From Polyangiales bacterium (lineage in GTDB: Bacteria > Myxococcota_A > Polyangia > Polyangiales > JADJQN01), in the NCBI GenBank assembly GCA_964202905.1, contig CAXNJO010000006.1, positions 160,001 through 224,000 on the forward strand: DNA of 64,000 nucleotides, in the 5' to 3' direction. Positions within the stretch are counted from its first letter, which is position 1; each line of letters opens with the position of its first letter. Below are positions 14,138 through 32,089 of the stretch, one piece after another. A program made the translations under genes and the position numbers. The notes under the pieces are model-generated. The model did no database searches. It saw only the letters and a list, made by a program, of their open reading frames with translations, and had not been told where the DNA came from.

Positions 14138-16174
14138 ATGTTCCGCGTCCTGCCCTCGCGATCCGCCGCTCTGCGCTCGTCTCGCTCGACACTCCTGCTC
14201 GCCGCGCTCGCGCTCTCCGCGTGCGGCGACGATGACGGGAGCGGCCCGCCGCCCGATCCGTGCGCCGCCGTCACGTGCGAAGCGGGCTACGCGTGCGACG
14301 CCGCCGTCGGGGCCTGCGCGCCCGTGGCGGTCTGCGACCCCGCTGCGACGGGCTGGGACGGAATACGTCCCACCTTCCGCGACGCCACGGAGGCGAGCGG
14401 GCTCCTCGCGGCGGGCGCGCTCGGCCAGCGCATCAACGCCGTCGACTTCGACGGCGACGGCTTCGCGGACCTCGCGATCCGCGCGGGCGGCACGGGGCAC
14501 GACGACGTCGCGATGGGCACGCGCGTGACGTGGCTGCTCCGCAACCGCGGCGACGGCACCTTCGAGGACGTCACCGAGGCGTCCGGCATCCGCACGCCGC
14601 GCCTCCCGCAGGGGCCGGGCGTCGGGCGCCCCGGTGAGGTGTGGGCCTTCGGCGACGTCGACAACGACGGCGACCTCGACGTGTACCAGGGCGTCAACCG
14701 CACCGACGTCGCCGCCGTGCTCGGCGAGACGAGCGAGCTGTTGCTCAACGACGGCGCGGGCCGCTTCGTGCTCGGCCCGGAGGCGGGCGAGCTGCGTCTG
14801 ATGGGCGCGGACACGCCCGCGGGCGCGTCCTTCGTCGACGCCGACCGCGACGGACAACTCGACCTCTGGGTCGCGCAGAACGGCGGCTCGCAGCCGGGCG
14901 CGCAGTCGCGGCTCTTCCGCGGCGACGGCGCGGGTTTCTTCGCGGACATCACCGCGGCGTCGGGGCTCACGACGCAGTCGTGGCGCTCGTTCGCCGGCAT
15001 CAACGAGGGGCGCGGACACGCGCGCTCGTGGTCGTCCGCCGCGTGCGATCTCGACGGAGACGGCACGACGGAGTTGCTCGCCGCGAGCTACGGCCGCGCG
15101 CCGAACCTGCTCTTCCAGGGCGTGCGCGCGGGCGACGGAGCGCTCTCCTTCACGAACCGGAGCGTGTCCTCTGGATACGCTTACGATGGTGTTCGCGAGT
15201 GGACCGACAACCAGTTCGCGCGCTGCTTCTGTCAGGCGAACCGCACGGCGGATGGCTGCGCGACGGTGCCCGCGCCGGCCATCAGCTCGTGTCCCCCGAA
15301 CTGGACGCACGAGCAGGATCGCGAGGCGTTCCGGCTCGGCGGCAACTCGGGCACGACGGTCTGCGCGGACATCGACAACGACGGCGACATCGATCTTCTC
15401 ACCACGGAGATCCAGCACTGGTGGGCCGGCACCGGCGCCGACCGCGCCGAGTGGCTGCTCAACACGGGCGAGCCCGAGGCGCGCTTCGAGCGGCCGGGCC
15501 GCGCCGCGCAGGGCTGGGATGTGCCGCACCCCGGGGCGTCGTGGGACGAGGGCATCATGACGGCGGCCGCGTTCGACTTCGATGGCGACGCGCGCCGCGA
15601 CTTCTACCTCGGCGGCTCCGACTACGCGGGCAACCACGGCATGCTCTTCCACCAGGGCGGGGGCGGACAATTCGCGGCCGTGCCGATCGAGCTCGGCATC
15701 GATCACCACCGCAGCCACGGCGTCGCGGTCGCGGACTTCGATCGCGACGGCGACCTCGACGTCGTCGTCGGCCACTCGCGCTCGCGCTGCGACGCCTCCG
15801 CGCCCGACGACTGCTACGCGACGACGCAGGTCCGCTACTTCGAGAACGTCTCGCCCCCGCAGAACTTCGTGCAGCTCGCGCTCGTCGGCGCCGCGGGCAC
15901 GAACCGCAGCGCGATCGGCGCGCGCGTCCGCGTGACCGCGGGCGGCGTCACGCAGACGTTCGACGTCGGCGGCGGTCACGGGCACTACGGCATGCAGGAC
16001 GACCTCGTCGTGCACGCGAGCCTCGGCACCGCGTGCGAGGCGACGATCACCGTGCGCTGGCCCGACGCGGCGCTCACCACCGAGACGTTCACGCTCCCGG
16101 CGGGCCACCGCTACCGGCTCACGCAGGGCGCAGCGCCCGCGGCCGCCGACGTGCCTTCGCCCGCGGGCCCCTGA
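14138..16174 (+). CDS. CRTAC1-like lipoprotein (FG-GAP/VCBS repeats + ASPIC/UnbV domain)
   Basis: Lipobox LSAC; repeated DxDxDGxxDL motifs; C-terminal [11 protein letters not shown]...GGGHGHYG. Confidence 0.88.
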
Positions 16175-18746: not shown

Positions 18747-18762
18747 GACTGACACGCCAGTC
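18747..18762. promoter_or_regulatory. Imperfect palindrome GACTGAC-ac-GCCAGTC, candidate TetR operator upstream of the lipid operon
   Basis: 7-bp arms with one mismatch, 26 nt upstream of the first ATG (18789); the operon ends in a TetR gene. Confidence 0.5.
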
Positions 18763-18788: not shown

Positions 18789-19448
18789 ATGGACACAGCG
18801 GCTTTCTATCGGGTCGAAGGCGCCATCGTCGGCCGTCCGGCCCTCGCGGCGGCGGCCTATCTCGTCGGCAACGCGCAGCACGTGCGCGATCGGATCCTCC
18901 GGCTCGGCGGCGTCGCGGCCTCGCTGCCCCTCGCGCTCGGCGGCGACCGGACGCTCGCGGCGCGCGTCGCGTGGATGGGCCTGCGCGGCATGAGCGAGGA
19001 CCGGCTCGCGGTGCTCGGCGAGGAGTACGGCGACCGCTACCTCGTGCCGGAGATCAAAGACCTCGCGCGGCAGCTCATCGCCGAGTCGCGCGCCCGCAAG
19101 CACCGCATCGTGCTCGTGAGCGACTCGCTCGACGTCGTGGTCGGGCCGCTCGCGCGCGCGCTCGGCGTGCCCGCGGCGGACCTCGTCGCCAACCGCGCCG
19201 AGCTCAACGCCGAGGGCCGCGCGACGGGGCGCCTCGCGGATCCGATCGTCGGTGGCGCCGTCGGCGGCACCTGGGTGCGCGCGTTCGCGAAGGAGCGCGG
19301 CATCGACCTCGAGCGCTCGTTCGTCTACGGCGCGAGCGGCGACGACGGCCTGCTGCTCTCGGCAGTGGGGCATGCGTGCGCGGTGACGCCGGACCGCGCG
19401 CTGCGGCGGCTCGCCCGCGACAACGGTTGGCCCGTGGTGGAAGCGTGA
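18789..19448 (+). CDS. HAD-IB (SerB/PSP-like) family protein with degenerate catalytic motifs
   Basis: HAD-IB layout (AAFYRVEGAI, IVLVSDS, GIDLERSFVYGASGDDGLLLSAVGHACAVTPD), but the motif I DxD is replaced by RxE. Confidence 0.8.
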   Translation: MDTAAFYRVEGAIVGRPALAAAAYLVGNAQHVRDRILRLGGVAASLPLALGGDRTLAARVAWMGLRGMSEDRLAVLGEEYGDRYLVPEIKDLARQLIAESRARKHRIVLVSDSLDVVVGPLARALGVPAADLVANRAELNAEGRATGRLADPIVGGAVGGTWVRAFAKERGIDLERSFVYGASGDDGLLLSAVGHACAVTPDRALRRLARDNGWPVVEA

Positions 19449-19459
19449 AGGAGGAGCAG

Positions 19460-21202
19460 ATGGACGCGCTCGAGCGCTCGAATCCCCGGCCCGCCGGTGC
19501 GTCCGGCGCGCTCTCGGTGCACGCGGCCTTCGCGGGCAGGCACGTGCTCGTCACCGGCGTGACGGGCTTCCTCGGCAAGGTGTGGCTCGGCATGCTGCTC
19601 GACCTCGTGCCGGGCGTCGGGCGCGTGTCGGTGCTCGTGCGCCCGCCGCGCCGCGCGAAGGGCGACGCGACCGCCGCGGCGACCGCCCGCTTCGAGAAGA
19701 TCGCGGCCACCGCGCCCGCGTTGCGCCCGCTCCGCGCGACGCATGGCGCGGGGCTCGGCGCGTTCCTCGACGCGAAGCTCGACGTCGTCGCGGGCGACGT
19801 CTCGCAGCCGCTCTGCGGGCTCGCGCCGCAGGAACTCGAGCGCCTCGCGAAGACGGTGGACGTCGTCGTGCATTTCGCGGGGCTCACCGACTTCGAGCCC
19901 GATCCGCGCGAGGCCGTCGAGGTGAACGTGCGCGGCGCCGCGCACGTCGCGGACGTCGCCGCGCGCCTGCGTGTGCCGCGGCTCGTGCACGTCTCGACGT
20001 GCTTCGTCGCGGGGTGCCGCGACGGCGAGATCGCCGAAGAGCGCGCGACGGGCACGACGCCGGACGGTCGGCCGATGGACGTCGCCAGCGTGGTCGAGAC
20101 GCTGCTCGCGCGGGCCGACGCGGTCGAGTCCAAGAGCGAGCGTCGCGGCGCCGCGCTGCGCCGGATCCGCGCGGAAGCGGGCGGCCACTACGCGCGCGAG
20201 CTCGCCTTCCCGAACACGTACACGCTGACGAAGGCGCTCGCGGAGCAACTGCTCGTCGAGCGCAGCGACGTGCGCGCGAGCGTCGTGCGCCCCGCTATCG
20301 TCGAGTGCGCGCGCGCTTACCCGTTCGCGGGCTGGAACGAGGGCATCAACACCAGCGGTCCGCTCGTCTGGCTGCTCGCGGGCCCGTTCTTCGAGCTCCC
20401 GTGTCGCCCGGACGCGCGCTTCGACGTGGTGCCCGTCGACGACGTCGCGAAGGGCACGATGCTCATGGTCGCCGCGATGCTCGGCGACGACGCGCCCGAG
20501 GTCGTGCAGCTCGGGACCTCGCACACGCGCCCCTTCACCGTCGGCCGCGCGGTCGAGCTGACGGGCCTCGGCGTGCGCAAGTACCACGATCGCCCCGAGG
20601 CGACGAAGCTCGAGAAGCTGCTCTTCCGCTACCTCGACGCGGTGCCCGTGCCGGCCGAGAGCGGCTCGCTCCTCTCGGTGCCGCGCCTGCGCCAGCACGC
20701 GCGCCGCCTCCGGACCTGGCTCGAGGACGTGCGCTTCGACGAGGCGCTGCCCACGACCGCGCGACGCGTCGCGGGGCAGCAGGTGTCGCGCGCGCAGCTG
20801 CGCGCCCACATGGCCGCGTCGGGCTTCGAGACGGTGCTCCGCCGCATCGACCAGATGCTCGCGCTCTTCAAGCCGTTCATCCACGACCACGACTGGGTGT
20901 TCCGCACCGACCGCATGACCGCGCTGAGCGCGCGCCTCGTGCCCGCCGAGCGCGCCCAGTTCGGGTGGGATCTGCGCGACCTCGACTGGCGCTCCTACTG
21001 GCTCGACGTGCAGATCCCCGGCCTCGCGACGTGGTGCCTGCCGCTGATGAACGGCAAGACCGTGCCCGACGACCCGCCGGCCCAGCCGCCGCTGCGCCTC
21101 GCGCGTGCGACGGCCGGGCTGCCGCCGACGTCCGCCGCGATCTCGAACGGCCACGTCGCGCACGGCGCCGCCGCGAACGCGGGCAGCGAGGCGCGCGCGT
21201 GA
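19460..21202 (+). CDS. Fatty acyl-CoA reductase-like (male-sterility/extended SDR) protein
   Basis: VTGVTGFLGKV, HVSTCFVAG, FPNTYTLTKALAE, VRPAIVE, PFAGWNEG and DVVPVD; AAGGAGGAG RBS before ATG 19460 (alternative GTG 19445). Confidence 0.88.
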   Translation: MDALERSNPRPAGASGALSVHAAFAGRHVLVTGVTGFLGKVWLGMLLDLVPGVGRVSVLVRPPRRAKGDATAAATARFEKIAATAPALRPLRATHGAGLGAFLDAKLDVVAGDVSQPLCGLAPQELERLAKTVDVVVHFAGLTDFEPDPREAVEVNVRGAAHVADVAARLRVPRLVHVSTCFVAGCRDGEIAEERATGTTPDGRPMDVASVVETLLARADAVESKSERRGAALRRIRAEAGGHYARELAFPNTYTLTKALAEQLLVERSDVRASVVRPAIVECARAYPFAGWNEGINTSGPLVWLLAGPFFELPCRPDARFDVVPVDDVAKGTMLMVAAMLGDDAPEVVQLGTSHTRPFTVGRAVELTGLGVRKYHDRPEATKLEKLLFRYLDAVPVPAESGSLLSVPRLRQHARRLRTWLEDVRFDEALPTTARRVAGQQVSRAQLRAHMAASGFETVLRRIDQMLALFKPFIHDHDWVFRTDRMTALSARLVPAERAQFGWDLRDLDWRSYWLDVQIPGLATWCLPLMNGKTVPDDPPAQPPLRLARATAGLPPTSAAISNGHVAHGAAANAGSEARA

Positions 21203-22365
21203 GCCACGTCTTCGTCACCGGTGCGACCGGCTACCTCGGCGGTTACACCGTCACGCGGCTCCTCCGCGACCACCCCGCGACGCGCGTCGCGCTCCTCGTG
21301 CGCGGGCGCGACGAGCGCGAGGCGACGGACAAGCTCTGGCGCTCTCTGCAGCTCCACATGGAGCCGCGCGAGTTCTGGGACGCGCTCTCGCGCGTGGACT
21401 TCGTGCTCGGTGATCTCACCTCGACGAAGCCGCGCCTCGGCATCGCGCCGGACGTCTACGAGCGCACCGTGCGCGGCATCGACTCGGTGCTGCACATCGC
21501 GGCCTCGCTGAACCGCAAGAGCGAGAAGGCCTGCCTCAACACCAACCTGCGCGGGACGCTCGCGGTGCTCGAGCTCGCGCGCGACGCGAAGACGCACGGC
21601 GGACTGCGTCGCTATTCGCACGTCTCGACCGTCGCGGTGTGCGGCCATCGCGACCGCGAGGTCGTCACCGAGGACGCGGCCATCGACTGGGACCGCTCCG
21701 ACTACGACCCGTACGGCCGCACGAAGAAGTTCTGCGAGCACATGGCGCACGTGCTCTTGCCGGACGTGCCGAAGACCATCTTTCGGCCGAGCATCGTGAT
21801 GGGCGACGCGACGCGCCCCGAGACGACGCAGTTCGACATGGTGCGCGCGTTCTGCGTGCTCGCGGATCTGCCCGTCGTGCCCGTCCGCGCCGAGGCGCGG
21901 CAGGACATCGTCAACGCCGACTGGGTCGGCCGCGCGATCGCGACCGTGCACATGAAGGACGCGCCGAAGTACGACTGCTACCACCTCTCGGCGGGGACGC
22001 GCTCGCTGTCCGCGGAGACGATCGCGGGCGCCCTCGCGGGGGCCGTCGGGCGTCGGCCGCCGCGCTTCGTCGGCGCCGCGGAGCAGCCCTTCGCGACGGC
22101 CGCGGAGCTGATGATGCGCTTCCCGAAGAAGAGCGCCGTCGCGCTCGTCGGCTCGCTGCTGCACGTCTTCCTGCCGTACATCACGTACGACACGGTCTTC
22201 GACAACGAGCGCATCGTGTCGGAGCTCGGCGAGGCGCCGGTGCCCTTCACGGGCTACTGCGCGGAGCTCTACCGCTGGGCGAAGCGTCACGACTTCGAGT
22301 ACCCGTATCGTCCGCTTCCGTCGCGGCCGGCGCAGGTGCAGGGCGCGGAGCTGGGCCATGTCTGA
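21199..22365 (+). CDS. Extended SDR oxidoreductase (thioester-reductase/FAR-like)
   Basis: FVTGATGYLG, HIAASLNR, HVSTVAVCG, YGRTKKFCE (YxxxK) and RPSIVMGD; GTGA overlap with the upstream stop. Confidence 0.88.
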   Translation: MSHVFVTGATGYLGGYTVTRLLRDHPATRVALLVRGRDEREATDKLWRSLQLHMEPREFWDALSRVDFVLGDLTSTKPRLGIAPDVYERTVRGIDSVLHIAASLNRKSEKACLNTNLRGTLAVLELARDAKTHGGLRRYSHVSTVAVCGHRDREVVTEDAAIDWDRSDYDPYGRTKKFCEHMAHVLLPDVPKTIFRPSIVMGDATRPETTQFDMVRAFCVLADLPVVPVRAEARQDIVNADWVGRAIATVHMKDAPKYDCYHLSAGTRSLSAETIAGALAGAVGRRPPRFVGAAEQPFATAAELMMRFPKKSAVALVGSLLHVFLPYITYDTVFDNERIVSELGEAPVPFTGYCAELYRWAKRHDFEYPYRPLPSRPAQVQGAELGHV

Positions 22366-24055
22366 GGCCGAGCGCAACGAGGCGCCCGCCGAGGCGACGG
22401 GCCTCGCGCGGCGGGGCGCGGAGGCGTCGGAGGAGCGCCCGCGGAAGCGGGGCAGCAAGCTCCTCGCCGGGCTCGCGCGGGTCGCGGGCAAGGCCGCGAA
22501 GGCCGCGCTCGAGGTCGCCGGGCGCGAGCTCGATCCCGACCGGCTCCTGCAGCGCGCGATGGCGAGCACCATCGAGGCAGCGGCGAGCCGCTACGCGGTC
22601 GATCCCGGCGCGCAGTGGCGCCCGGGCGAGCCGCTGCGGCTGCTCTTCGCGGGCTACAGCGGCACGCGCAACACGGGCGCCGACGTGCGCGTCGAGGAGA
22701 TGGTCCGGCAGGTCCGTTGGCTCTTTGGCGACGAGCACGTCGCGCTCTCGCTGCTCACCATCGACCCGGCCCTCTCGCGCGGATATTTCCGCACCGTCGA
22801 GCAGCTGCACCTGCCGCAGTTCTTCCCGCCCTTCCTCTACGAGAAGGTGCACGGCGTGCACGGCGTCATCGCGTGCGAAGGCTCGATGTTCAAGTCGAAG
22901 TTCGCGAACGCGCTCTCGACGATGATGGTCGGCGCGCTCGGCGTCGCGGCTGCCGAGAACAAGCTCGCCATCGGCTATGGGGGTGAAGCCGGCGCGATGG
23001 ATCCGTCACTGCAGGACCTCGTCCGCACCTACTGCCGCGACGCGCTCATCGTCGTGCGCAACAAGGAGAGCGGCGAGGTGCTCGCGGACCTCGGCGTGCG
23101 CAGCAAGCCCGGCACCGACACCGCGTGGACGTTCGAGCCCGCCGGGCCCGAGGTCGGTGCGCGCGTGCTCCGCGCGGCGGGCTGGGACGGCGAGACGCCG
23201 GTGCTCGTCGTCTGTCCGATCAACCCCTTCTGGTGGCCGGTGAAACCCGACGTCAGCAAGGGCGTCGTGCAGGCGCTCACCGGGGCGCACGACGAGTCGC
23301 ATTACGACTCGTTCTACTTCCACAAGGACGGCGACGCGGTCCGCGAGAAGCAGCGCCGCTACCTCGGCGCGCTCGCCGACGGCATCACGTCGTTTCTCGC
23401 GGAGCACGACGCCTTCCCCGTGATCGTGGGGATGGAGCAGCTCGACCGCCGCGCGTGCGAGGGGCTCTCGAAGCTCGTCGCGGAGCGCGCGGGACGCGAG
23501 GCGCCGCCCGTGATCGTCTCGGACGAGCACGACATGTACGAGATGGTCAGCGTGCTGCGCACGGGCCGCGCGCTGCTCTCGTCGCGCTACCACGCGATCG
23601 TCACCTCGATGCCGGGGCTCGTGCCCTCGGCGGGCGTGACGATGGACGAGCGCATCCGCAACCTCATGGCCGATCGCGGCCAGCCGGAGCTCTGCCTCGG
23701 CGTCGAGGACGCCGACCTCGCCGAGCGCGTCAGCGTCGTGCTGGGGCGGCTCTGGACGGATGGGGACGCGGTCGCCGACGGCATCGGCCGCACGGTGGTC
23801 ACCAACCTCGAGCGCATGGGCGAGATGGGCGTGACGCTCGTCGACTTCGTGCGCGCGCGGCACCCCGGAGTGCCGGTGCGCGCGGGCGTTGGCAGCGCCG
23901 CCTCCGGGGGCGAGGGCGACCCGTGGGCGCACCTGCCGCCGCTGCCGCCGGCCGTCGCCGCGCTCGTCGCGAAGTACCGCGGAACGCCCACGAACACGGG
24001 CGATGCGCGCCCCGTCGCGCGGGCGCTCGCCGAGCACGTGGGATCGCAGCCTTGA
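22358..24055 (+). CDS. Polysaccharide pyruvyl transferase (WcaK/CsaB-like) family protein
   Basis: AGYSGTRNTGAD (cf. GYYGxxNxGD), VVRNKES (cf. RDxxS), GTDTAW (cf. DPAF) and SSRYHAIV (cf. RLH). Confidence 0.72.
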   Translation: MSEAERNEAPAEATGLARRGAEASEERPRKRGSKLLAGLARVAGKAAKAALEVAGRELDPDRLLQRAMASTIEAAASRYAVDPGAQWRPGEPLRLLFAGYSGTRNTGADVRVEEMVRQVRWLFGDEHVALSLLTIDPALSRGYFRTVEQLHLPQFFPPFLYEKVHGVHGVIACEGSMFKSKFANALSTMMVGALGVAAAENKLAIGYGGEAGAMDPSLQDLVRTYCRDALIVVRNKESGEVLADLGVRSKPGTDTAWTFEPAGPEVGARVLRAAGWDGETPVLVVCPINPFWWPVKPDVSKGVVQALTGAHDESHYDSFYFHKDGDAVREKQRRYLGALADGITSFLAEHDAFPVIVGMEQLDRRACEGLSKLVAERAGREAPPVIVSDEHDMYEMVSVLRTGRALLSSRYHAIVTSMPGLVPSAGVTMDERIRNLMADRGQPELCLGVEDADLAERVSVVLGRLWTDGDAVADGIGRTVVTNLERMGEMGVTLVDFVRARHPGVPVRAGVGSAASGGEGDPWAHLPPLPPAVAALVAKYRGTPTNTGDARPVARALAEHVGSQP

Positions 24056-25689
24056 CGACTGAACCGTCGTTCATCGAGGTCTTCCTCGACGTCCTCGCGA
24101 AGGAGCCCGCGAAGGCGCACGTCACCGAGATCCACGGCCCGACGCCACGCCCCTTCGACGGCACGTCGCTGTGCGAACTCGTCGCCCGCGCCCGCGGCGC
24201 GTTGCGGTCGCGCGGCGTGCGCCCCGGCGACCGCGTGGGCCTGCTCGCGGCGAACTCCGCGCAGTGGGTCGCGGCCGACGTCGCGCTGCTCGCGGAGGGC
24301 GCGATCGTCGTGCCGCTCTACGCGCGGCAGGAGCCCGCCGAGCTCGCGGGGATGCTGCGCGACGCGGGCGCGACGCTCGTCGTCGCGAGCACCGACGCCC
24401 TCGCTGCCGCGCTCGCCGCGCACCTGCCCGGCGTGCCCGCGTGCCTCTTCGCCGAGCTCTTCGCGGGTGAGCCCGTGCGCGAGCCCGCCGCGCCGCGCGC
24501 GCCCGGCGACTGCGTCACCATCGTCTACACCTCGGGCACGAGCGGCGAGCCGAAGGGCGTGATGGTCACGCGCGCGGGCGTCGACCACATGCTGCCCGTC
24601 ACGCGCGACTCGCTGCGCGCGCTGATGGGCGCGCAGGCCGGGAACGACCGGCTCTTCCACTACCTGCCGTTCTGCTTCATGGGCTCGCGGATCGTCTTGT
24701 GGACGGCGCTCTACCGCGGCTCCGGGATCCTCGTCTCGACGAGCCTCGAGAACCTGGTCGAGGAGATGAAGACGGCGCGGCCGCACTACTTCCTCAACGT
24801 CCCGGCGCTGCTCGAGCGCATCAAGAAGGGCGTCGAGGGCAAGCTCGCGACGAAGCCGGCGCCCGTGCGCGCGCTCTATGCGCGTGGCCTTCAGGCAGCG
24901 GCACGCAGCGCGGCCGGCGAGGCGTCGATCGTCGATCGCGCCGCGCTCGCGCTCGCGCGTCGCGTCGTGTTCGCGACGATCCGCGCGCAGATCGGGCCGG
25001 ATCTCGTGTGCCTCATCTGCGGGAGCGCGCCGCTGCACCCGGACACGCAGCGTTGGTTCGAGACGCTGGGCATCCCCGTCTACCAGGTCTACGGGCTCAC
25101 GGAGACGACCGCGATCGTGACGATGGACGTGCCTGGGCACGCGGTCGCGGGGCGCGTCGGCACCGCGATCCGCGGCGTCGAGCTGAAGCTCGGCGAGGGC
25201 GACGAGCTGCTCGTGCGCGGGCCCAACGTCTTCGCCGGCTACTGGCAGCGGCCCGAGGCGACGGCCACCGCGCTCGCGGACGGCTGGTTCCACACGGGCG
25301 ATCAGTGCGGCCTCGACGCGCGCGGCAACCTCGAGGTCATCGGGCGCGTCGGCAACATCCTCGTCGCCGAGTCGGGGCACAACATCGCGCCCGAGCCCAT
25401 CGAGACGAAGCTCCTCGCCGAGCTGCCGGGCGCCGAGAACTGCGTCGTGCTCGGCCACGGGCGCCCGTACCTCGCGGCCATCGTCACGGGCAAGGTCGCG
25501 ACCGACGACGTGCAGCGCGCGGTCGATCGCGTGAACGAGACGCTGCCGCACTACCGGCGCGTGCGCCGCTTCCACGTCTCCGCCGCGCCCTTCACGATCG
25601 AGAGCGGGCTGCTCACCGCGAACCAGAAGCTGCGCCGCAAGGCCATCGAGAAGCACTACGCGGACGCCGTGAAGGAGCTCTACGCGTGA
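24052..25689 (+). CDS. AMP-forming long-chain acyl-CoA/ACP ligase (FadD/ACSL-like) 1
   Basis: IVYTSGTSGEPKG, YLPFCF, YGLTETT, GWFHTGD and LLTANQKLRR; TTG start overlapping the upstream TGA. Confidence 0.9.
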   Translation: MTTEPSFIEVFLDVLAKEPAKAHVTEIHGPTPRPFDGTSLCELVARARGALRSRGVRPGDRVGLLAANSAQWVAADVALLAEGAIVVPLYARQEPAELAGMLRDAGATLVVASTDALAAALAAHLPGVPACLFAELFAGEPVREPAAPRAPGDCVTIVYTSGTSGEPKGVMVTRAGVDHMLPVTRDSLRALMGAQAGNDRLFHYLPFCFMGSRIVLWTALYRGSGILVSTSLENLVEEMKTARPHYFLNVPALLERIKKGVEGKLATKPAPVRALYARGLQAAARSAAGEASIVDRAALALARRVVFATIRAQIGPDLVCLICGSAPLHPDTQRWFETLGIPVYQVYGLTETTAIVTMDVPGHAVAGRVGTAIRGVELKLGEGDELLVRGPNVFAGYWQRPEATATALADGWFHTGDQCGLDARGNLEVIGRVGNILVAESGHNIAPEPIETKLLAELPGAENCVVLGHGRPYLAAIVTGKVATDDVQRAVDRVNETLPHYRRVRRFHVSAAPFTIESGLLTANQKLRRKAIEKHYADAVKELYA

Positions 25690-26510
25690 CCGCGCCGTTC
25701 GTCGGAGAGACGCTCTCGTACGCGCACGTCGGCACGACGCTCGAGGTCACGCTGCACCGCTCGGTGCCGGGCGCCTCGTGCAACGAGATCGGCGAGCAGA
25801 CGCTGCGCGAGCTCGAGGCCCTCGTCGCGTATCTCGCCGCCGGTGCCGGGGGAGCGCGCGCGCTGCTCTTCGCGAGCAGCGTGCCGCGCGGCTTCTGCGC
25901 GGGCGCGGATCTGCGCGCGCTCTACGAGGGCATGGTCGCGCGCCGCGGCGCGGGGGCGCCGCCGGTCGGCGAGGTGCGCGCGTTTCTCGACCGCATCCAC
26001 GCCGTCTTCGACGCGCTCGACACCACGCCGCTGACCACCGTCGCGGCGTTGCACGGGGTGGTGTTCGGCGGCGGCTTCGAGCTCGCGCTCACCTGCGACG
26101 TGCTCGTCGCGGACAAGACCGCGCGCTTCTGCTTCCCGGAGCTGCGGCTCGGGCTCGTGCCCGGGTTCGGCGGCATCCCGCGGCTCGCGCGGGACGTCGG
26201 CAACGCCGTCGTGCGCGACCTGCTCTTCACCGGGCGCTCGCTCAACGCGCAGCGCGCGCAGCAGATCGGGCTCGTCTCGCAGCTCGTCGCGCCCGGCGAG
26301 GCCGTGCACGTCGCGCGCAAGGTCGCGGAGCAGGCGGCGCGCTTCGACGCGGCGACCTCGGCGGCCGCCAAGGCCTTCGCGAAGCCGCTCCCGAGCGAGT
26401 GGCTGAACCGCGAAAAAGACACGTTTTGCGCGCTCTTCGCCTCGCCGGTGGTCGAGGCCGCGCTCCACAAGTTCGTCACCAGCACCGACGCGAGACCGTA
26501 CCTGCCATGA
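25686..26510 (+). CDS. Enoyl-CoA hydratase/isomerase
   Basis: FCAGADL, GGGFELAL and FPELRLGLVPGFGG (both catalytic Glu present); GTGA overlap. Confidence 0.9.
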   Translation: MTAPFVGETLSYAHVGTTLEVTLHRSVPGASCNEIGEQTLRELEALVAYLAAGAGGARALLFASSVPRGFCAGADLRALYEGMVARRGAGAPPVGEVRAFLDRIHAVFDALDTTPLTTVAALHGVVFGGGFELALTCDVLVADKTARFCFPELRLGLVPGFGGIPRLARDVGNAVVRDLLFTGRSLNAQRAQQIGLVSQLVAPGEAVHVARKVAEQAARFDAATSAAAKAFAKPLPSEWLNREKDTFCALFASPVVEAALHKFVTSTDARPYLP

Positions 26511-26758
26511 ACGCCTCATCCAGCCCCGACCTCGAGACCCGCCTGCTCACCCTCGCCGCCGCGCGCTTCGGCAAGCCCGTCGCCTCGCTCGCGCCTGGCG
26601 ACGACGTCTTCGAGAAGCTCGGCATCGACAGCATCCAGGCGATGGAGATGCTCACCGAGATCGAGACGACCTTCGGCGTCGAGGTCCCCGACTACGAGCT
26701 GCAGGGCGTGACGACGTTCGCCGGGATCGCGGAGCTCGTGCGCCGGAGGCTCGGCTGA
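26507..26758 (+). CDS. Acyl carrier protein
   Basis: 83 aa, acidic, LGIDSIQAMEML phosphopantetheine-Ser motif, FGVEVPD; ATGA overlap. Confidence 0.92.
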   Translation: MNASSSPDLETRLLTLAAARFGKPVASLAPGDDVFEKLGIDSIQAMEMLTEIETTFGVEVPDYELQGVTTFAGIAELVRRRLG

Positions 26759-28572
26759 TGGACGCGGCCCCCGAGACCCGGCCCGCCGCGCCGCGCGATG
26801 CCCGCGCGTACGCGATGCTCGATGCCTCGCGCTACACGAGCGTCGGCGAGATGCTCCGCGACGCGCTCGTGCAGTTCAAGACGCACGTCGCGTTCACCGA
26901 GCTCGATCGCCGCCGCGTCACGCAGCGGCTCAGCTACCTCGACGTCAAGCGCGCGGTCGAGCGGCTCGCGCGGCGCCTCGAAGACGCGGGGATCGGCGCG
27001 GGGGACCGCGTCGCCATCGTGATGACGAACCAGGCGCGCTGGCCGATCGCGGCGATGGCCGCGTTCTTCCGCGGCGCGGTCGTCGTCCCCATCGATTACA
27101 AGCTCACGCCGAAGGAGCGCGAGGCGCTGCTCGCGCACGCGAAGCCCCGCGCGCTCGTCACGGAGTACCCGCTGTTCGCGCCGCACGCCGCGGGCGCGCT
27201 CGAGGCCGTGTCGCTCGTGCTCGTGAGCGAGGCGCCGCCGAACGCGCGCCTCGGCCACGCGCAGCGCTGGGGTGCGCTCGACGGCGCGGACGAGCCGGCC
27301 GGCTCCGACGCGCCGCCGACCTTCGTGCCGCGCGCGCGCGAGGACGTCGCGACCATCGTCTACTCCTCGGGCACCGGCGGTCAGCCGAAGGGCTGCATGC
27401 TCCCGCACCGCGCGTACCTCGCGCAGTACGCGGCGCTCACGGCGCTCTTCCCGCTGGTCGCGGGCGATCGCTACTTCTCGATCCTGCCGACCAACCACGC
27501 GATCGACTTCATGTGCGGCTTCCTCGGGCCGCTCTGCGGCGGCGCGATGGTCGTGCACCAGCGCACGCTGCGCCCCGAGTTCCTCACCGCGACGATGAAG
27601 AGCGAGCGCGTCACGCACATGGCCGTCGTGCCGCTGCTGCTCACGGCCTTCGAGCGCGCGATCCGCGAGAAGCTCGACGCGCTCCCCGGCTGGCAGCGCG
27701 CGGCCGTCGAAGCGCTGATGCAGGTGAACGAGCGGCTCACCGAGCGGCGCCCGAACCGGCTCGTCAGCCGCACGCTGTTGCGTCCCATCCACGAGGCCTT
27801 CGGCGGCGAGCTGCGCGTGCTCTTCTGCGGCGGCGCGTTCGTCGAGCAGGAGCGCGCGGAGCTCTTCTACCGCCTCGGGCTGCCCGTCGCGATCGGCTAC
27901 GGGCTCACCGAGGCCAGCACCGTCGCGACGGTCAACGATCTGCGGCCTTTCCGGGGGGATTCCGTCGGCCGCGCGGTCGACGGCGTCTCGCTGCGCATCG
28001 TCGACGCGGACGCGAGCGGCGTCGGCGAGGTGCAGCTCCACGGGCCGACGCTGATGCTCGGCTACCTCGACGACCCCGAGCAGACGCGCGCTGCCTTCAC
28101 GGAAGATGGTTGGCTGCGCACGGGCGATCTCGGGCACCTCGACGCCTCGCACCACCTGCACCTCGTCGGGCGCAGCAAGAACATGATCGTCACGCGCGGC
28201 GGCAAGAACGTGTACCCCGAGGACATCGAGGGCGCGTTCGGCGGCGTCGCGTGCGAGGAGCTCGCGGTCTTCGCGGAGGGCTACCTCTGGCAGACGCGCG
28301 GCGAGCTCGTCGGCGAGCGGCTCGTCGTCGTCGCGCGCCTGAAATCGGGCGCGACCGAGGCCGAGCGGCTGCGCTTCACCGAGGCGCTGCACGCCGCGAA
28401 CCAGCGGCTCGCCGACTACAAGCGCGCGCACGCCCTGCTGCTGACGGACGAGGCCTTCCCGCGGACGGCGTCGATGAAGATCAAGCGCGGCCCCCTCGCG
28501 GAGGACTTGCGCGCGCGGTACGCGCAGGCCGACATGCTGTGGCTCGGCGAGCCGGTCGAGGCGGTGCGGTGA
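26758..28572 (+). CDS. AMP-forming long-chain acyl-CoA/ACP ligase 2
   Basis: IVYSSGTGGQPKG, ILPTNH, GYGLTEA, GWLRTGDLG, GRSKNMIV and FPRTASMKIKR. Confidence 0.92.
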   Translation: MDAAPETRPAAPRDARAYAMLDASRYTSVGEMLRDALVQFKTHVAFTELDRRRVTQRLSYLDVKRAVERLARRLEDAGIGAGDRVAIVMTNQARWPIAAMAAFFRGAVVVPIDYKLTPKEREALLAHAKPRALVTEYPLFAPHAAGALEAVSLVLVSEAPPNARLGHAQRWGALDGADEPAGSDAPPTFVPRAREDVATIVYSSGTGGQPKGCMLPHRAYLAQYAALTALFPLVAGDRYFSILPTNHAIDFMCGFLGPLCGGAMVVHQRTLRPEFLTATMKSERVTHMAVVPLLLTAFERAIREKLDALPGWQRAAVEALMQVNERLTERRPNRLVSRTLLRPIHEAFGGELRVLFCGGAFVEQERAELFYRLGLPVAIGYGLTEASTVATVNDLRPFRGDSVGRAVDGVSLRIVDADASGVGEVQLHGPTLMLGYLDDPEQTRAAFTEDGWLRTGDLGHLDASHHLHLVGRSKNMIVTRGGKNVYPEDIEGAFGGVACEELAVFAEGYLWQTRGELVGERLVVVARLKSGATEAERLRFTEALHAANQRLADYKRAHALLLTDEAFPRTASMKIKRGPLAEDLRARYAQADMLWLGEPVEAVR

Positions 28573-29471
28573 GCGACGCGTTCGTCACCGTCGTCAACGT
28601 CGCGGCCGGCGGCGGGCGCTGCGGGGCGCGGGCCCGCGAGGTGCTTCCGCGGCTGCGCGAGGCGGGGCTCGCGCTCGACGTGCGCGAGACGCGCGCGCCG
28701 GGCGACGCGACGCGGATCGTGCGCGAGGCGTACGGCGCGGGGGCGCGGCGCTTCCTCGCGGTCGGCGGCGACGGCACCACCTACGAGGTGGTCAACGGTC
28801 TCTTCCCCGCGGCCCAGGGCGCGCCGGACGTGACGCTCGGGATGCTGCCGCTCGGCACGGGCAACTCCTTCCTGCGCGACTTCGGGATCGTCGACGCGGA
28901 GGGCGCGATCGGCGCGCTGCTCCGCGGGACGACCCGCGCGATCGACGTCGTGCGCGCCGAGCACGCGGAGGGCGTGATTCACTACGTGAACCTGCTCAGC
29001 GTCGGCTTCAGCGCGACGGTCGGTGCGCTCACGAACCGGCGCTACAAGCCGTTCGGCCAGGCGGGCTACGCGCTCGCGGTCGTGCAGGGGCTCGCGCGGC
29101 TCGCGCACCCGACGTTCCCGCTGCGCCTCGACGACGCGGACACGATCGACCTGCGGCCGTGCACGCTGCTCTCGTTCTCGAACAGCCGCTGCACGGGCGG
29201 CACGATGCAGATGGCGCCCGATGCCGACCCGACCGACGGCGCGCTCGACGTGATCCGCGTGGGCGCGATGGGGCGGCGCGAGCTGCTGCGCACCTTCCCG
29301 AAGATCTACCAGGGCAAGCACGTGGGCCATCCGGCGGTGTCGGCGACGCGCGCGCGGCGCGTGACGTTCGCGGACCCGTTCGCGACGGATGTGATGGTGG
29401 ACGGGGAGGTCCTCGAGCTGACGCTGCGCGAGCTCCGGGTGCTGCCGGGCGCGCTGCAGGTGAGGGTGTGA
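28569..29471 (+). CDS. Diacylglycerol/sphingosine kinase family lipid kinase (DagK/YegS-like)
   Basis: VVNVAAGGG, VGGDGTTYEVVNG, LPLGTGNSF and DGEV; GTGA overlap. Confidence 0.9.
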   Translation: MSDAFVTVVNVAAGGGRCGARAREVLPRLREAGLALDVRETRAPGDATRIVREAYGAGARRFLAVGGDGTTYEVVNGLFPAAQGAPDVTLGMLPLGTGNSFLRDFGIVDAEGAIGALLRGTTRAIDVVRAEHAEGVIHYVNLLSVGFSATVGALTNRRYKPFGQAGYALAVVQGLARLAHPTFPLRLDDADTIDLRPCTLLSFSNSRCTGGTMQMAPDADPTDGALDVIRVGAMGRRELLRTFPKIYQGKHVGHPAVSATRARRVTFADPFATDVMVDGEVLELTLRELRVLPGALQVRV

Positions 29472-30319
29472 GTCCGATGGACGGGGAGCGCACGATGGAC
29501 GCGCAGCGTGGGTCGGTGGGCGAGGTTGAGGGCGAGGCCGGAGCGGTGCCCGTGTCGCTCGAGCCGGTGCGGCCGCTCGACTACGTGAAGTCGGCCGCGC
29601 TCTGGGCCGCGGGCGTCGCGTGGCTGGTGCCGACGCTCGGGCCGATGACGCTGCTGAACGCGACGGTCGGCCCGGAGCGCATCGAAGCGATCTCGCGCGT
29701 GTACACGCGCACGCAGGTCGCGCTCACCGGCTCGCGGTGGCGCACGGTGGTGCACCCCGAGGTCGACCCGAAGGGCGTCTACCTCTTCGCGCAGAACCAC
29801 ACGAACCACTTCGATCACGTCACGCTCTACGCGGCGACACCGCACTTCAAGCAGGGTGTCGAGCTCGAGTCGCACTTCTCGTATCCGTTCTACGGCTGGT
29901 TCATGAAGGCGCGCGGCACGATCCCGGTGCGCCCGGGCTCGAAGGGCCAGACCCCGGAGATCCTCGCGCGCTTCAAGTCCGAGGTCGACAAGGGGCACTC
30001 GATCCTCGCCTTCCCCGAGGGCACGCGCACGCTCGACGGGCGCGTCGGGCGCTTCCGCACGGGCACCTTCTTCATCGCGCGCGATCTCGGCATCCCCGTG
30101 GTGCCCGTCGCGGTGACCGGCATGTACGAGGTGATGCGCAAGGGCAGCTATCTGCTGCGTCCCGGGCACACGGTGACCGTCCACGTCGAGCGCCCGATCC
30201 CCACGGCCGGGCTGCGCGACGACGAGGTCCCCGCGCTCGCCGCCGAGGTCCAGCGCGTCGTGGCCGCGCGCATCGACACGTACTGGCGCGAGAAGGCGGA
30301 GCGGGGCGCCGCGCGATGA
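29468..30319 (+). CDS. Lysophospholipid (1-acylglycerol-3-phosphate) acyltransferase, PlsC-like
   Basis: NHTNHFD (HxxxxD), FPEGTR and VVPVAV; start uncertain (GTG 29468 or ATG 29477/29495). Confidence 0.9.
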   Translation: MSPMDGERTMDAQRGSVGEVEGEAGAVPVSLEPVRPLDYVKSAALWAAGVAWLVPTLGPMTLLNATVGPERIEAISRVYTRTQVALTGSRWRTVVHPEVDPKGVYLFAQNHTNHFDHVTLYAATPHFKQGVELESHFSYPFYGWFMKARGTIPVRPGSKGQTPEILARFKSEVDKGHSILAFPEGTRTLDGRVGRFRTGTFFIARDLGIPVVPVAVTGMYEVMRKGSYLLRPGHTVTVHVERPIPTAGLRDDEVPALAAEVQRVVAARIDTYWREKAERGAAR

Positions 30320-30966
30320 CCACGGCGCTCAAGGCCGACGCGAAGCCCGACGGGCGCACCGAGCGCGCGCAGGCGATCCGCCTCGAGCGCCGCGCGCACC
30401 TGCTCGACTCCGCGCTCCGCACCTTCGCGGCGCGGGGCTATCACCAGACCAGCATCGCGGACATCGTCGACGAGGCGGGCGTCGCGCGCGGCACGTTCTA
30501 CCTGTATTTCGAGTCGAAGAGCGCCGTCTTCCTCGCGCTGCTCGACGAGCTGCTCGCGCACCTGCGCGCGAACGTCGTCGGCGTCGACGTGACGCCGGGC
30601 GCGGCGCCGCTCGCCGCGCAGCTCCTCGACATCGTGCGCCGCATCCTGCGCACGGTGCTCGAGAAGCGCGCGCTCGCGAACATCGTCTTCCGCGAGGCCA
30701 TCGGGCTCGACGCGGAGGTCGACGCGAAGCTGCGCGTGTTCTACGCGTCGCTGCACCGCTTCCTCGTCGAGGCGCTCGAGCTCGGGCAGCAGACGGGCGC
30801 GGTGCGCGGGACACTCGACGTCGACGCGAGCGCGTCCTGCATCCTCGGCTCGATCAAGCAGGTGCTCGAGCAGTATTTCGTGCAGCAGGGCGAGCGCGAC
30901 TTCGACGTCGAGCGCTTCGCCCGCGCGATCCTCGACTACAACCTGCACGGCGTGCTCGCGCGCTGA
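30316..30966 (+). CDS. TetR/AcrR family transcriptional regulator
   Basis: RGYHQTSIADIVDEAGVARGTFYLYFESK helix-turn-helix; ATGA overlap. Confidence 0.94.
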   Translation: MTTALKADAKPDGRTERAQAIRLERRAHLLDSALRTFAARGYHQTSIADIVDEAGVARGTFYLYFESKSAVFLALLDELLAHLRANVVGVDVTPGAAPLAAQLLDIVRRILRTVLEKRALANIVFREAIGLDAEVDAKLRVFYASLHRFLVEALELGQQTGAVRGTLDVDASASCILGSIKQVLEQYFVQQGERDFDVERFARAILDYNLHGVLAR

Positions 30967-30979
30967 CGGCGCGACGCGG

Positions 30980-32089
30980 TCAGCTGCTCGCGGCGGGCGC
31001 GGACGGCGTCGGCGACGCGGCGCCGGGCGCGGGGGCCTCGGGGCCCGCGGGCGGCTGCGGTCCGGGCGGCTGCGATCCGGGCGGCTGCGATCCGGGAACC
31101 TGCGGCTCGGGCCCTGCGCCCGGCGTGCGCGGCAGGCCGAGCGATTCGCGGTAGCGCTCGTCGCCCGGGCCGTGGAGCGCCCAGTACGGGAGGCGCTCGG
31201 TGCGCAGGAGCGTGGCGCGCTCGCCGTCGCTCGCCGTCCACGCGAGGATGCGGCGCTGCCCGCCCTGCTCGACGTTGAAGGTGCGCGTCACACCCTCATA
31301 GGAGAGGGTGAAGCGATCGACGCCGCCGGCCTCGTGGGACCGCGCGATGCGGGCGGGCGTCGGCCTCAAGGGGATGTGGGCGCGGCGCGTGCTCCAGAGG
31401 CGCGGGACGAGCATGCCCTGCCAGTCGCCGCCCTCCGCGAAGGGACCATCGAGCTCGCGGAGCTGGATGAAGAGGGCGTCCTCGTAGAGCGTGCCGGCGG
31501 GGGCCGCGACGCGCTCGGTGCGCTCGCCCTCGTTCGCGAAGTAGCTGATCAGCTGCGACTCGTAGCCGTCGGCCGCGGGCCACACGCCGTGGAACACGTG
31601 GCCGCACCACTCCTGCGCGGTGAGCGTGATCTTCGCGGGGGCAAAGCGCGTCGGGAGGTAGCCGTCGACCGGCGCGAACACGCTCGTCAGGAGCGAGTAG
31701 GGGTAGATGCCCGTCTGGAAGCGCTCGGTGTAGTTGAGCTTCAGCACGGGCACGCCGCGCGCCCCGGCGGCGTCGTCCTTCACGAGCGTGTCGCGGTCGA
31801 GGGGCTCGGTGACGTAGACGAGCACGATCTCCGCCTCGCGCGGCGCGCCGTAGCGCATGACCGTCGCGCGGTAGCCGCTCAGCTCGGCGCGGCCGTCGCC
31901 CCACGTGCGCCAGAAGCCCGCGGACGCGCGCGCGCCGGGTCGCGCGGGGAGCTGGGCGTGCGCGTGCGCCGGGTGCTCGGGCGCGCTGACCGGCCCGCCG
32001 TGCGAGCAAGCCGGCGCGGCGAGCGCGGCGAGCGCGGCGAGCGTGATGGCGCGGGCGCGCCGCGCGCGGAGGCGTGAGCTGTTGGACAT
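30980..32089 (-). CDS. Conserved hypothetical lipoprotein with Pro/Gln-rich repeated tail
   Basis: Lipobox-like APAC; globular region WGDGRAELSGY...RYG...VLKLN...TGIYPYS...QEWCGH; tail with GSQPP-type 15-bp repeats at about 31055-31100. Confidence 0.75.
   Translation of the reverse strand: MSNSSRLRARRARAITLAALAALAAPACSHGGPVSAPEHPAHAHAQLPARPGARASAGFWRTWGDGRAELSGYRATVMRYGAPREAEIVLVYVTEPLDRDTLVKDDAAGARGVPVLKLNYTERFQTGIYPYSLLTSVFAPVDGYLPTRFAPAKITLTAQEWCGHVFHGVWPAADGYESQLISYFANEGERTERVAAPAGTLYEDALFIQLRELDGPFAEGGDWQGMLVPRLWSTRRAHIPLRPTPARIARSHEAGGVDRFTLSYEGVTRTFNVEQGGQRRILAWTASDGERATLLRTERLPYWALHGPGDERYRESLGLPRTPGAGPEPQVPGSQPPGSQPPGPQPPAGPEAPAPGAASPTPSAPAASS

Follow-up and report, generated by a model that had tools for sequence, protein, structure and literature searches.

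An eleven-gene operon at positions 18789 to 30966 of a 64,000-nucleotide stretch of DNA from a Polyangiales bacterium (contig CAXNJO010000006.1 of assembly GCA_964202905.1; the whole stretch is called the window here) is a real, widespread and apparently undescribed lipid operon. Judged from its protein sequences, the cassette is elb-like by anatomy, yet distinct from a simple split ElbD; the reference here is the elbA-E operon of Myxococcus xanthus, whose ElbD protein combines reductase, adenylation, carrier and acyltransferase domains, as set out in the portions of PMC9131029 and PMC13012113 that deal with it. We tentatively propose that the enzymes of the cassette convert a fatty alcohol and phosphoenolpyruvate (PEP), by way of an enol ether and a 2-O-alkylglycerol, into an ether phospholipid without ElbD. 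This PEP-based route, for which substrates, products and step order are all deduced from domain chemistry, falls somewhat short of an even chance in our estimate, and with all readings summed an ether lipid of some kind is the probable product.

Ether-bond formation in aerobic bacteria is an open question on which the operon may bear. The passages of PMC9131029 on ElbD give its reductase and acyltransferase activities as not shown and the ether-forming step as unknown, and the relevant part of PMC11868695 calls the ether route unclear in Acidobacteria, the candidate makers of the brGDGTs (branched glycerol dialkyl glycerol tetraethers) used as climate proxies. The literature searched, which excluded subscription papers (for example, a 2018 acidobacterial survey) and the supplements of a sponge study, yielded no description of the cassette and no link between its pyruvyl-transferase-like protein (PYR) and ether lipids.

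In order, the genes encode a HAD-fold protein (HAD), a FAR-like reductase (FAR), an extended SDR (SDR), PYR, an acyl-CoA ligase-like protein (LIG1), an enoyl-CoA hydratase (ECH), a stand-alone acyl carrier protein (ACP), an adenylating enzyme (LIG2), a lipid kinase (KIN), a PlsC-family acyltransferase (PlsC) and a TetR regulator (TetR). All eleven open reading frames (ORFs) are open and lie on the + strand, with a GC content at third codon positions (GC3) of 0.93-0.98. At nine of the ten junctions neighbouring genes share 1, 4 or 8 bases, and the start codons were deduced from these overlaps: four-base GTGA overlaps join HAD to FAR, FAR to SDR, LIG1 to ECH and LIG2 to KIN, four-base ATGA overlaps join ECH to ACP and PlsC to TetR, PYR and LIG1 share four bases (TTGA), SDR and PYR share eight, and ACP and LIG2 share one (TGATG). 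The sole gap, between KIN and PlsC, measures 5 nucleotides with the ATG at 29477 as start. Upstream of the operon lies a thymidylate synthase/dihydrofolate reductase (DHFR) pair, and a convergent gene marks the downstream end. The original prediction, made from the DNA letters alone, had described a coupled operon with overlaps at nearly every junction. Coupling is borne out by the co-directional ORFs and their families, the overlaps by every junction but KIN/PlsC, and the gene labels by Pfam and NCBIfam profiles. The same profiles find no ketosynthase or condensation domain, as predicted, and no sugar-pathway gene among the eleven proteins; the further claim that no glycosyltransferase is present holds by sequence family, but PYR has a GT-B glycosyltransferase fold.

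PYR matches occur in 37 of 61 related genomes, and gene order is mostly as in the window in 20 of these, at loci picked from the best PYR matches on long contigs; close relatives carry the labels Sandaracinaceae/Polyangiales. A scan of species genomes confirmed at least 571 PYR loci among 600 candidate stretches, and the best 80 of these loci, a few of which come from genomes already in the related-genome set, belong to Myxococcota, Acidobacteriota (Terriglobia and Blastocatellia) and a few other groups. With each gene scored in these 80 loci only where flanking DNA sufficed, the reductive genes are kept in 61 of 67 (HAD), 67 of 72 (FAR) and 71 of 77 (SDR) loci, the ligases and carrier in 64 of 76 (LIG1), 58 of 65 (LIG2) and 58 of 68 (ACP), and the remaining genes in 65 of 70 (ECH), 51 of 62 (kinase), 42 of 59 (PlsC) and 14 of 57 (TetR). 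Of 49 well-flanked loci, 40 hold all seven partner genes of the core, and the predicted co-occurrence as a cassette is thus found in relatives; because the 80 loci are the closest matches, all of these counts lean towards conservation. PYR, ECH, the kinase and LIG1 are as conserved as the core (50-67% identity among relatives); the first three rank with the best-conserved genes, and the distinctive chemistry probably lies with them. HAD and FAR form one reading frame in Acidobacteriota. In some genomes PYR lies apart from the cassette, and an SDR orthologue is found elsewhere in four of five of these. In samples of 201 genomes from each of two phyla, PYR is present in 21 Myxococcota genomes (three weak matches with E>1e-4 being excluded) and in 9 Acidobacteriota genomes. 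The operon is common, and it is made of separate, soluble-looking enzymes, each open to assay.

Two variations at the cassette itself may be added. A gene that we take, from its sequence, to be CDP-alcohol-transferase-like lies 3' of the cassette in 22 of the 80 loci, and four Blastocatellia cassettes (L100, L110, L112 and L116) carry a FabH-like gene between the hydratase and ACP.

In the PEP-based route, acyl-CoA would come from LIG1 (24052..25689, +; AMP-binding) or a housekeeping ligase, and FAR (19445..21202, +; PF07993 and PF03015), with an inactive HAD (18789..19448, +; PF12710) as partner, would reduce it to a fatty alcohol. PYR (22358..24055, +) would join this alcohol to carbon 2 of PEP, giving a 2-alkoxyacrylate and phosphate; since the acceptor would be a mono-alcohol, a cyclic ketal cannot form. 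LIG2 (26758..28572, +; PF00501) would adenylate the 2-alkoxyacrylate and load it onto ACP (26507..26758, +; PF00550), ECH (25686..26510, +; PF00378, ECH_1) would add water to give 2-O-alkylglyceroyl-ACP, and the SDR (21199..22365, +; PF07993), of thioester-reductase type, would release 2-O-alkylglycerol. Crotonases hydrate 2-substituted acryloyl thioesters. KIN, a YegS/DgkB-type kinase (28569..29471, +; PF00781 and PF19279, DAGK_cat and YegS_C; TIGR00147 above cut-off), and PlsC (29477..30319, +; PF01553; start at 29477 or 29495) could act in either order and would yield a 1-acyl-2-O-alkyl analogue of phosphatidic acid, on which head-group enzymes could then work. The route thus predicts a PEP-derived backbone with the ether at sn-2. 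It gives a role to every conserved gene, and the motifs that it requires are intact: both catalytic glutamates of the hydratase (GGGFE and FPE, conserved across 81 orthologues), GGDG in the kinase, HxxxxD in PlsC, Ser42 in the DS motif of ACP and YxxxK in both reductases.

The pattern of the ligases speaks for this route: LIG1 can be replaced, whereas LIG2, ACP and ECH belong to the core. LIG1 groups with three paralogues of the same genome (support of 99 in the Shimodaira-Hasegawa-like approximate likelihood ratio test, SH-aLRT; quick tree of 47 rows), and none of the four genomes with a LIG1-less cassette has a LIG1 orthologue elsewhere; its absence without a replacement orthologue and its housekeeping-type grouping make LIG1 dispensable. 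No other protein of the genome matches the ElbD adenylation domain as well as LIG2 does, and in the same quick tree, with a thin outgroup, LIG2 forms a separate clade (100 SH-aLRT) in an open fork with ElbD.

On sequence grounds PYR appears to belong with the polysaccharide-pyruvyl-transferase family PF04230. The full protein has no Pfam match at 0.001, reaching 19.5 bits against the PF04230 cut-off of 25.3, and matches TIGR03609 at 1.1e-10, far below the cut-off; however, every one of the 93 aligned PYR members reaches E<=0.01 against PF04230 (best 3.4e-12), in accord with the pyruvyl-transferase-like label given at the outset, and the Atlas features of PYR show 0.99 to PF04230 clusters. Escherichia coli WcaK aligns with PYR end to end (hhalign 96%, E 2.2e-9), and through this alignment and known motifs the PEP site of CsaB was mapped onto PYR. 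The residues that bind PEP in CsaB, according to the part of PMC10435577 on its active site, are S88, R148, R306, H308 and K328; in PYR the counterparts S176, R234, R410 and H412 are invariant, and R432 replaces the Lys. The structure model (predicted local distance difference test, pLDDT, 96.4) has a GT-B fold. PYR is therefore like the ketal-pyruvyltransferases CsaB (Paenibacillus alvei), WcaK and Pvg1p (Schizosaccharomyces pombe) in its fold and its PEP-binding Arg, His and Ser, and it differs from them in scoring below the curated cut-offs, in lying in a fatty-acyl operon with no glycan locus, and in occurring in two kinds of fusion with fatty-acyl enzymes. Among 8000 candidates, P0242 (5 members) is a natural FAR-PYR fusion, and P0241 (1 member) fuses PYR to an acyl-AMP ligase (fatty-acyl-AMP-ligase type, with a PilZ insert) and an ACP; these fusions tie PYR to fatty-acyl chemistry. 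The reaction proposed for PYR, in which alcohol and PEP give enol ether and phosphate, is that of MurA and AroA, and enolpyruvyl transfer by MurA is described in sections of PMC10435577 and PMC6801904. This likeness is purely chemical, as no sequence or fold match of PYR to MurA/AroA was seen.

The family membership of PYR might instead suggest that it caps a diol head group, as a ketal-pyruvyltransferase or a glycosyltransferase would, with LIG2 and ACP feeding FAR and any ether bond made by AGPS or in another step. Every characterised relative of PYR makes ketals, several of them on lipid-linked acceptors, and a fold search with the PYR model ranks glycosyltransferases first and Pvg1p 21st, so that the fold leaves the chemistry undecided. 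The closeness of LIG2 to the ElbD A domain would fit as well, and AGPS-like genes are present in 122 of the 201 Myxococcota genomes and in 16 of the 21 that have PYR. However, no AGPS-like match was found in the other 5 PYR genomes, and 0 of 100 cassette loci contain an AGPS-like gene. Head-group capping would also leave an intact hydratase and a second reductase without a clear role in a cassette that holds no sugar genes, and PYR departs from WcaK at the acceptor-side motifs, with Ala108 in place of the NxGD Asp, followed by an invariant Asp109, and an invariant Glu174 in place of Gly. We consider this explanation unlikely, though not negligible. Should enol-ether formation by PYR prove true, it would give a family so far known for decorating sugars its first role in building lipids.

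The AGPS pathway (MXAN_1676-1674 in myxobacteria; FAR/GNPAT/AGPS in animals) likewise obtains its ether donor, a fatty alcohol, from a FAR, but the AGPS-like gene of the source genome lies apart from the cassette. This gene (G000:C14:17214-18794, L174) has alkyl-dihydroxyacetone-phosphate (alkyl-DHAP) synthases as its best matches in the PDB; it is followed by a second ORF resembling flavin adenine dinucleotide (FAD) oxidases and has no adjacent FAR.

A product lacking the ether bond is a further, rather unlikely, alternative: a fatty-alcohol or fatty-aldehyde derivative such as a wax ester, a storage or signalling lipid, or a compound in which a C-C bond joins PEP to a fatty aldehyde. The best matches of the SDR in the PDB are thioester-reductase domains (MxaA and the R domains of polyketide synthases, PKS, and nonribosomal peptide synthetases, NRPS), and its matches to TIGR01746 and PRK07201 fall below the cut-off. 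As PRK07201 is nevertheless the best NCBIfam match, the two reductases could work serially, on the acyl-thioester and then on the aldehyde; the ether bond itself is deduced, and the regulator is FadR-like. On the other hand, the kinase and PlsC suggest an end product like a glycerophospholipid, the eleven genes include no wax-ester synthase, and a non-ether product predicts neither the exclusion of ElbD nor the palindrome common to plsA/ger-like genes, both of which are described below.

For the comparison with elb, 20 reference loci were chosen by domain architecture and neighbours (HAD, Lar_N gene, fused ElbD and SDR), not by M. xanthus sequences. They comprise a HAD, a Lar_N gene (18/20), a fused ElbD and an epimerase-type, ElbE-like SDR (19/20, median 44%), in agreement with the published elbB-E layout so far as it is given in the elb sections of PMC9131029 and PMC13012113. 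Like elb, the cassette starts with a HAD gene and provides FAR, adenylating, carrier and PlsC-type functions. FAR is 33-38% identical to fused ElbD-type proteins across 86-95% of its length, its catalytic Y/K pair is invariant among orthologues, and it is the only PF03015 match in the genome; a search of longer proteins with FAR returned 1485 matches, of which the 120 listed are ElbD-type proteins with R-A-T-AT architecture. The window HAD has homology to the HAD at the head of elb-type loci (median identity 38%). Its motif I differs, with RxE in 69 of 79 cassette ORFs versus DxD in 13 of 14 elb ORFs; the window protein reads FYRVEG, so that the catalytic Asp nucleophile is lost and the HAD is likely a pseudo-phosphatase.

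Kinship of FAR with ElbD and of HAD with its elb partner had both been predicted, correctly. The same prediction held that the whole ElbD/elb domain set occurs here as stand-alone proteins with a duplicated ligase, and this part finds no support in that form. ElbD-type functions are indeed spread over four separate ORFs instead of one protein of about 1500 amino acids (aa), and no full-length match to three ElbD-type proteins exists in the genome. However, an ElbC-like Lar_N gene is present in 0 of 100 cassette loci, and PF09861 has no match in this 94%-complete genome (in the same search the control was positive in 2/14). The SDR is of another type, with 23-27% identity to elb-locus SDRs and 0/20 matches at 1e-10, and LIG1 groups with housekeeping-type ligases, not with LIG2. 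The operon PlsC shares its Pfam family with the ElbD acyltransferase, but two other PlsCs of the genome score higher than it does against P0113 (70.5 and 67.0 versus 54.3 bits). The extra PYR, hydratase, kinase, LIG1 and TetR also set the cassette apart. The separate ORFs, the missing ElbC and ElbE types and the RxE motif together place the operon as related to elb but outside it.

A dissociated ElbD that makes 1-O-alkyl lipids of the M. xanthus type, and in which PYR, ECH, the kinase and LIG1 serve as tailoring accessories, therefore appears quite unlikely, although FAR is a relative of ElbD-R and HAD of ElbB-type HADs, fused ElbD and the cassette come close to excluding each other, and split elbD variants are reported in the part of bioRxiv 10.64898/2026.06.23.733905 that treats elb. 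The supposed accessories are conserved like the core, and LIG2 is not nested among ElbD A domains. The clades with kinases and acyltransferases that the same sponge study describes in that part have a fused or two-part elbD.

The Lar_N gene in the elbC position (for example, L158:5318-7015) carries the lactate-racemase N-terminal domain PF09861 and is given as of 'unknown function' in the relevant lines of a review. A Lar_N protein in this position, like PYR, points to the handling of a three-carbon acid.

The distribution of the cassette adds to this comparison. Fused ElbD-type proteins occur in 63 of the 201 Myxococcota genomes (50 full matches and 13 partial or two-piece ones), and one genome (G117) has both ElbD and PYR, against 6.6 expected (hypergeometric 0.003, with kin not independent). 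Among the 201 Acidobacteriota genomes, 32 have ElbD and none has both, against 1.4 expected, which is not significant alone. In family f48, all genomes but one (13 of 14) have PYR, and the remaining one carries an elb locus of canonical layout; G117 is the genome with both. Cassette and fused ElbD thus nearly exclude each other, a pattern that counts in favour of the PEP-based route, and marker screens on ElbD, AGPS or Ger alone would miss or misfile the operon. In the Acidobacteriota sample, a reductase-less A-T-AT protein (about 900 aa) is common, also alongside a PYR cassette, and 16 genomes carry a distant second class of fused ElbD (32-37%).

Regulation provides a further connection to ether lipids. 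The TetR gene (30316..30966, +; PF00440, TetR_N) has Bacillus-type FadR as its best NCBIfam match, below cut-off. A palindrome (GACTGAC-N2-GTCAGTC; no strand, 1 mismatch) occupies 18747..18762, 42 bases ahead of the HAD start, and this site is the best match in the genome; the feature therefore begins upstream of 18789, where the original prediction had placed its start. The palindrome, with at most one mismatch, precedes HAD in 24 of 24 cassette loci that bear a TetR and include upstream DNA, in 3 of 50 cassette loci lacking a TetR match (two of these three being incomplete loci) and in 0 of 100 each of the shuffled upstream sequences; none of 13 elb HAD promoters comes within one mismatch (best 2). 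The palindrome tracks TetR and is likely the operator of the operon's own regulator.

The closest TetR paralogue in the genome faces a PlsA-like gene with a spacer-less variant of the palindrome; that gene and its next gene lie at G000:C3:578942-583302 (L182; BcrAD_BadFG twice and DUF2229, 1197 aa). This domain layout is of the PlsA type, and the myxobacterial plsA-like genes are putative ether makers. The 201 genomes hold 56 TetR-subfamily matches: 17 belong to cassettes, another 17 have a plsA-like gene within 5 kb, and 1 is next to a fused elbD; 20 of the other 21 were examined, of which 4 more lie near plsA/ger-like genes (21 in all), several near other lipid genes and many among unrelated neighbours. 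The palindrome, at up to one mismatch, is found upstream of 8 of 30 plsA-like genes, and the 18 perfect palindromes among the matches listed fall at 2 cassettes, at 12 plsA/ger-like genes (one only probably) and, in 4 cases, at nothing. This shared TetR subfamily and palindrome link the operon in its regulation to a known ether-forming family, the anaerobic plasmalogen/alkyl-ether enzymes PlsA/PlsR and Ger. No enzyme is shared, however. PlsA-like genes (54-79% identity) are present in 71 of 201 Myxococcota genomes and in 10 of the 21 with PYR, and the source genome itself carries both AGPS-like and PlsA-like genes.

This regulatory link is weakened by the FadR-like nature of the TetR, which may just track acyl-CoA. 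Salvage or breakdown of fatty acids, alcohols or prey lipids by the ligases, hydratase, kinase and acyltransferase under FadR-type control is very improbable. In its favour, fatty-acid catabolism typically features acyl-CoA ligases, a crotonase and a FadR-like TetR, and some TetR relatives adjoin acyl-CoA dehydrogenase or FadL genes. Against it, the cassette lacks an acyl-CoA dehydrogenase, a hydroxyacyl dehydrogenase, a thiolase and a transporter, and its two NAD(P)H reductases, dedicated ACP and PEP-type transferase are biosynthetic features.

In its fullest form, the PEP-based proposal would make the operon an oxygen- and AGPS-independent ether route by GT-B enolpyruvyl transfer, with a PEP-derived backbone and sn-2 alkyl phospholipids, which stands in for elb in some Polyangiales, Nannocystales and Acidobacteriota and has a regulator and operator in common with plsA/ger-like genes. 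We advance this combination with clear reserve, at roughly one chance in three. If true, the common TetR and operator would define a Myxococcota ether-lipid regulon.

Some minor observations remain. Weaker relatives of the palindrome lie upstream of some canonical elb operons (G124:C62:26823; L168:4599; and before HAD in L159, L160 and L169). An element, GACTGAACCGTCATTCA, recurs at no fewer than seven places on contigs C1, C5, C8 and C11 of the source genome (G000) and may be a repeat or the operator of another regulator. In the window, positions 14138-16174 (+), upstream of the thymidylate synthase/DHFR pair, encode a probable 678-aa lipoprotein whose many DxDxDG repeats look FG-GAP-like on inspection. 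The gene at 30980-32089 (-), convergent on the operon, encodes a probable 369-aa lipoprotein without a Pfam or NCBIfam match.

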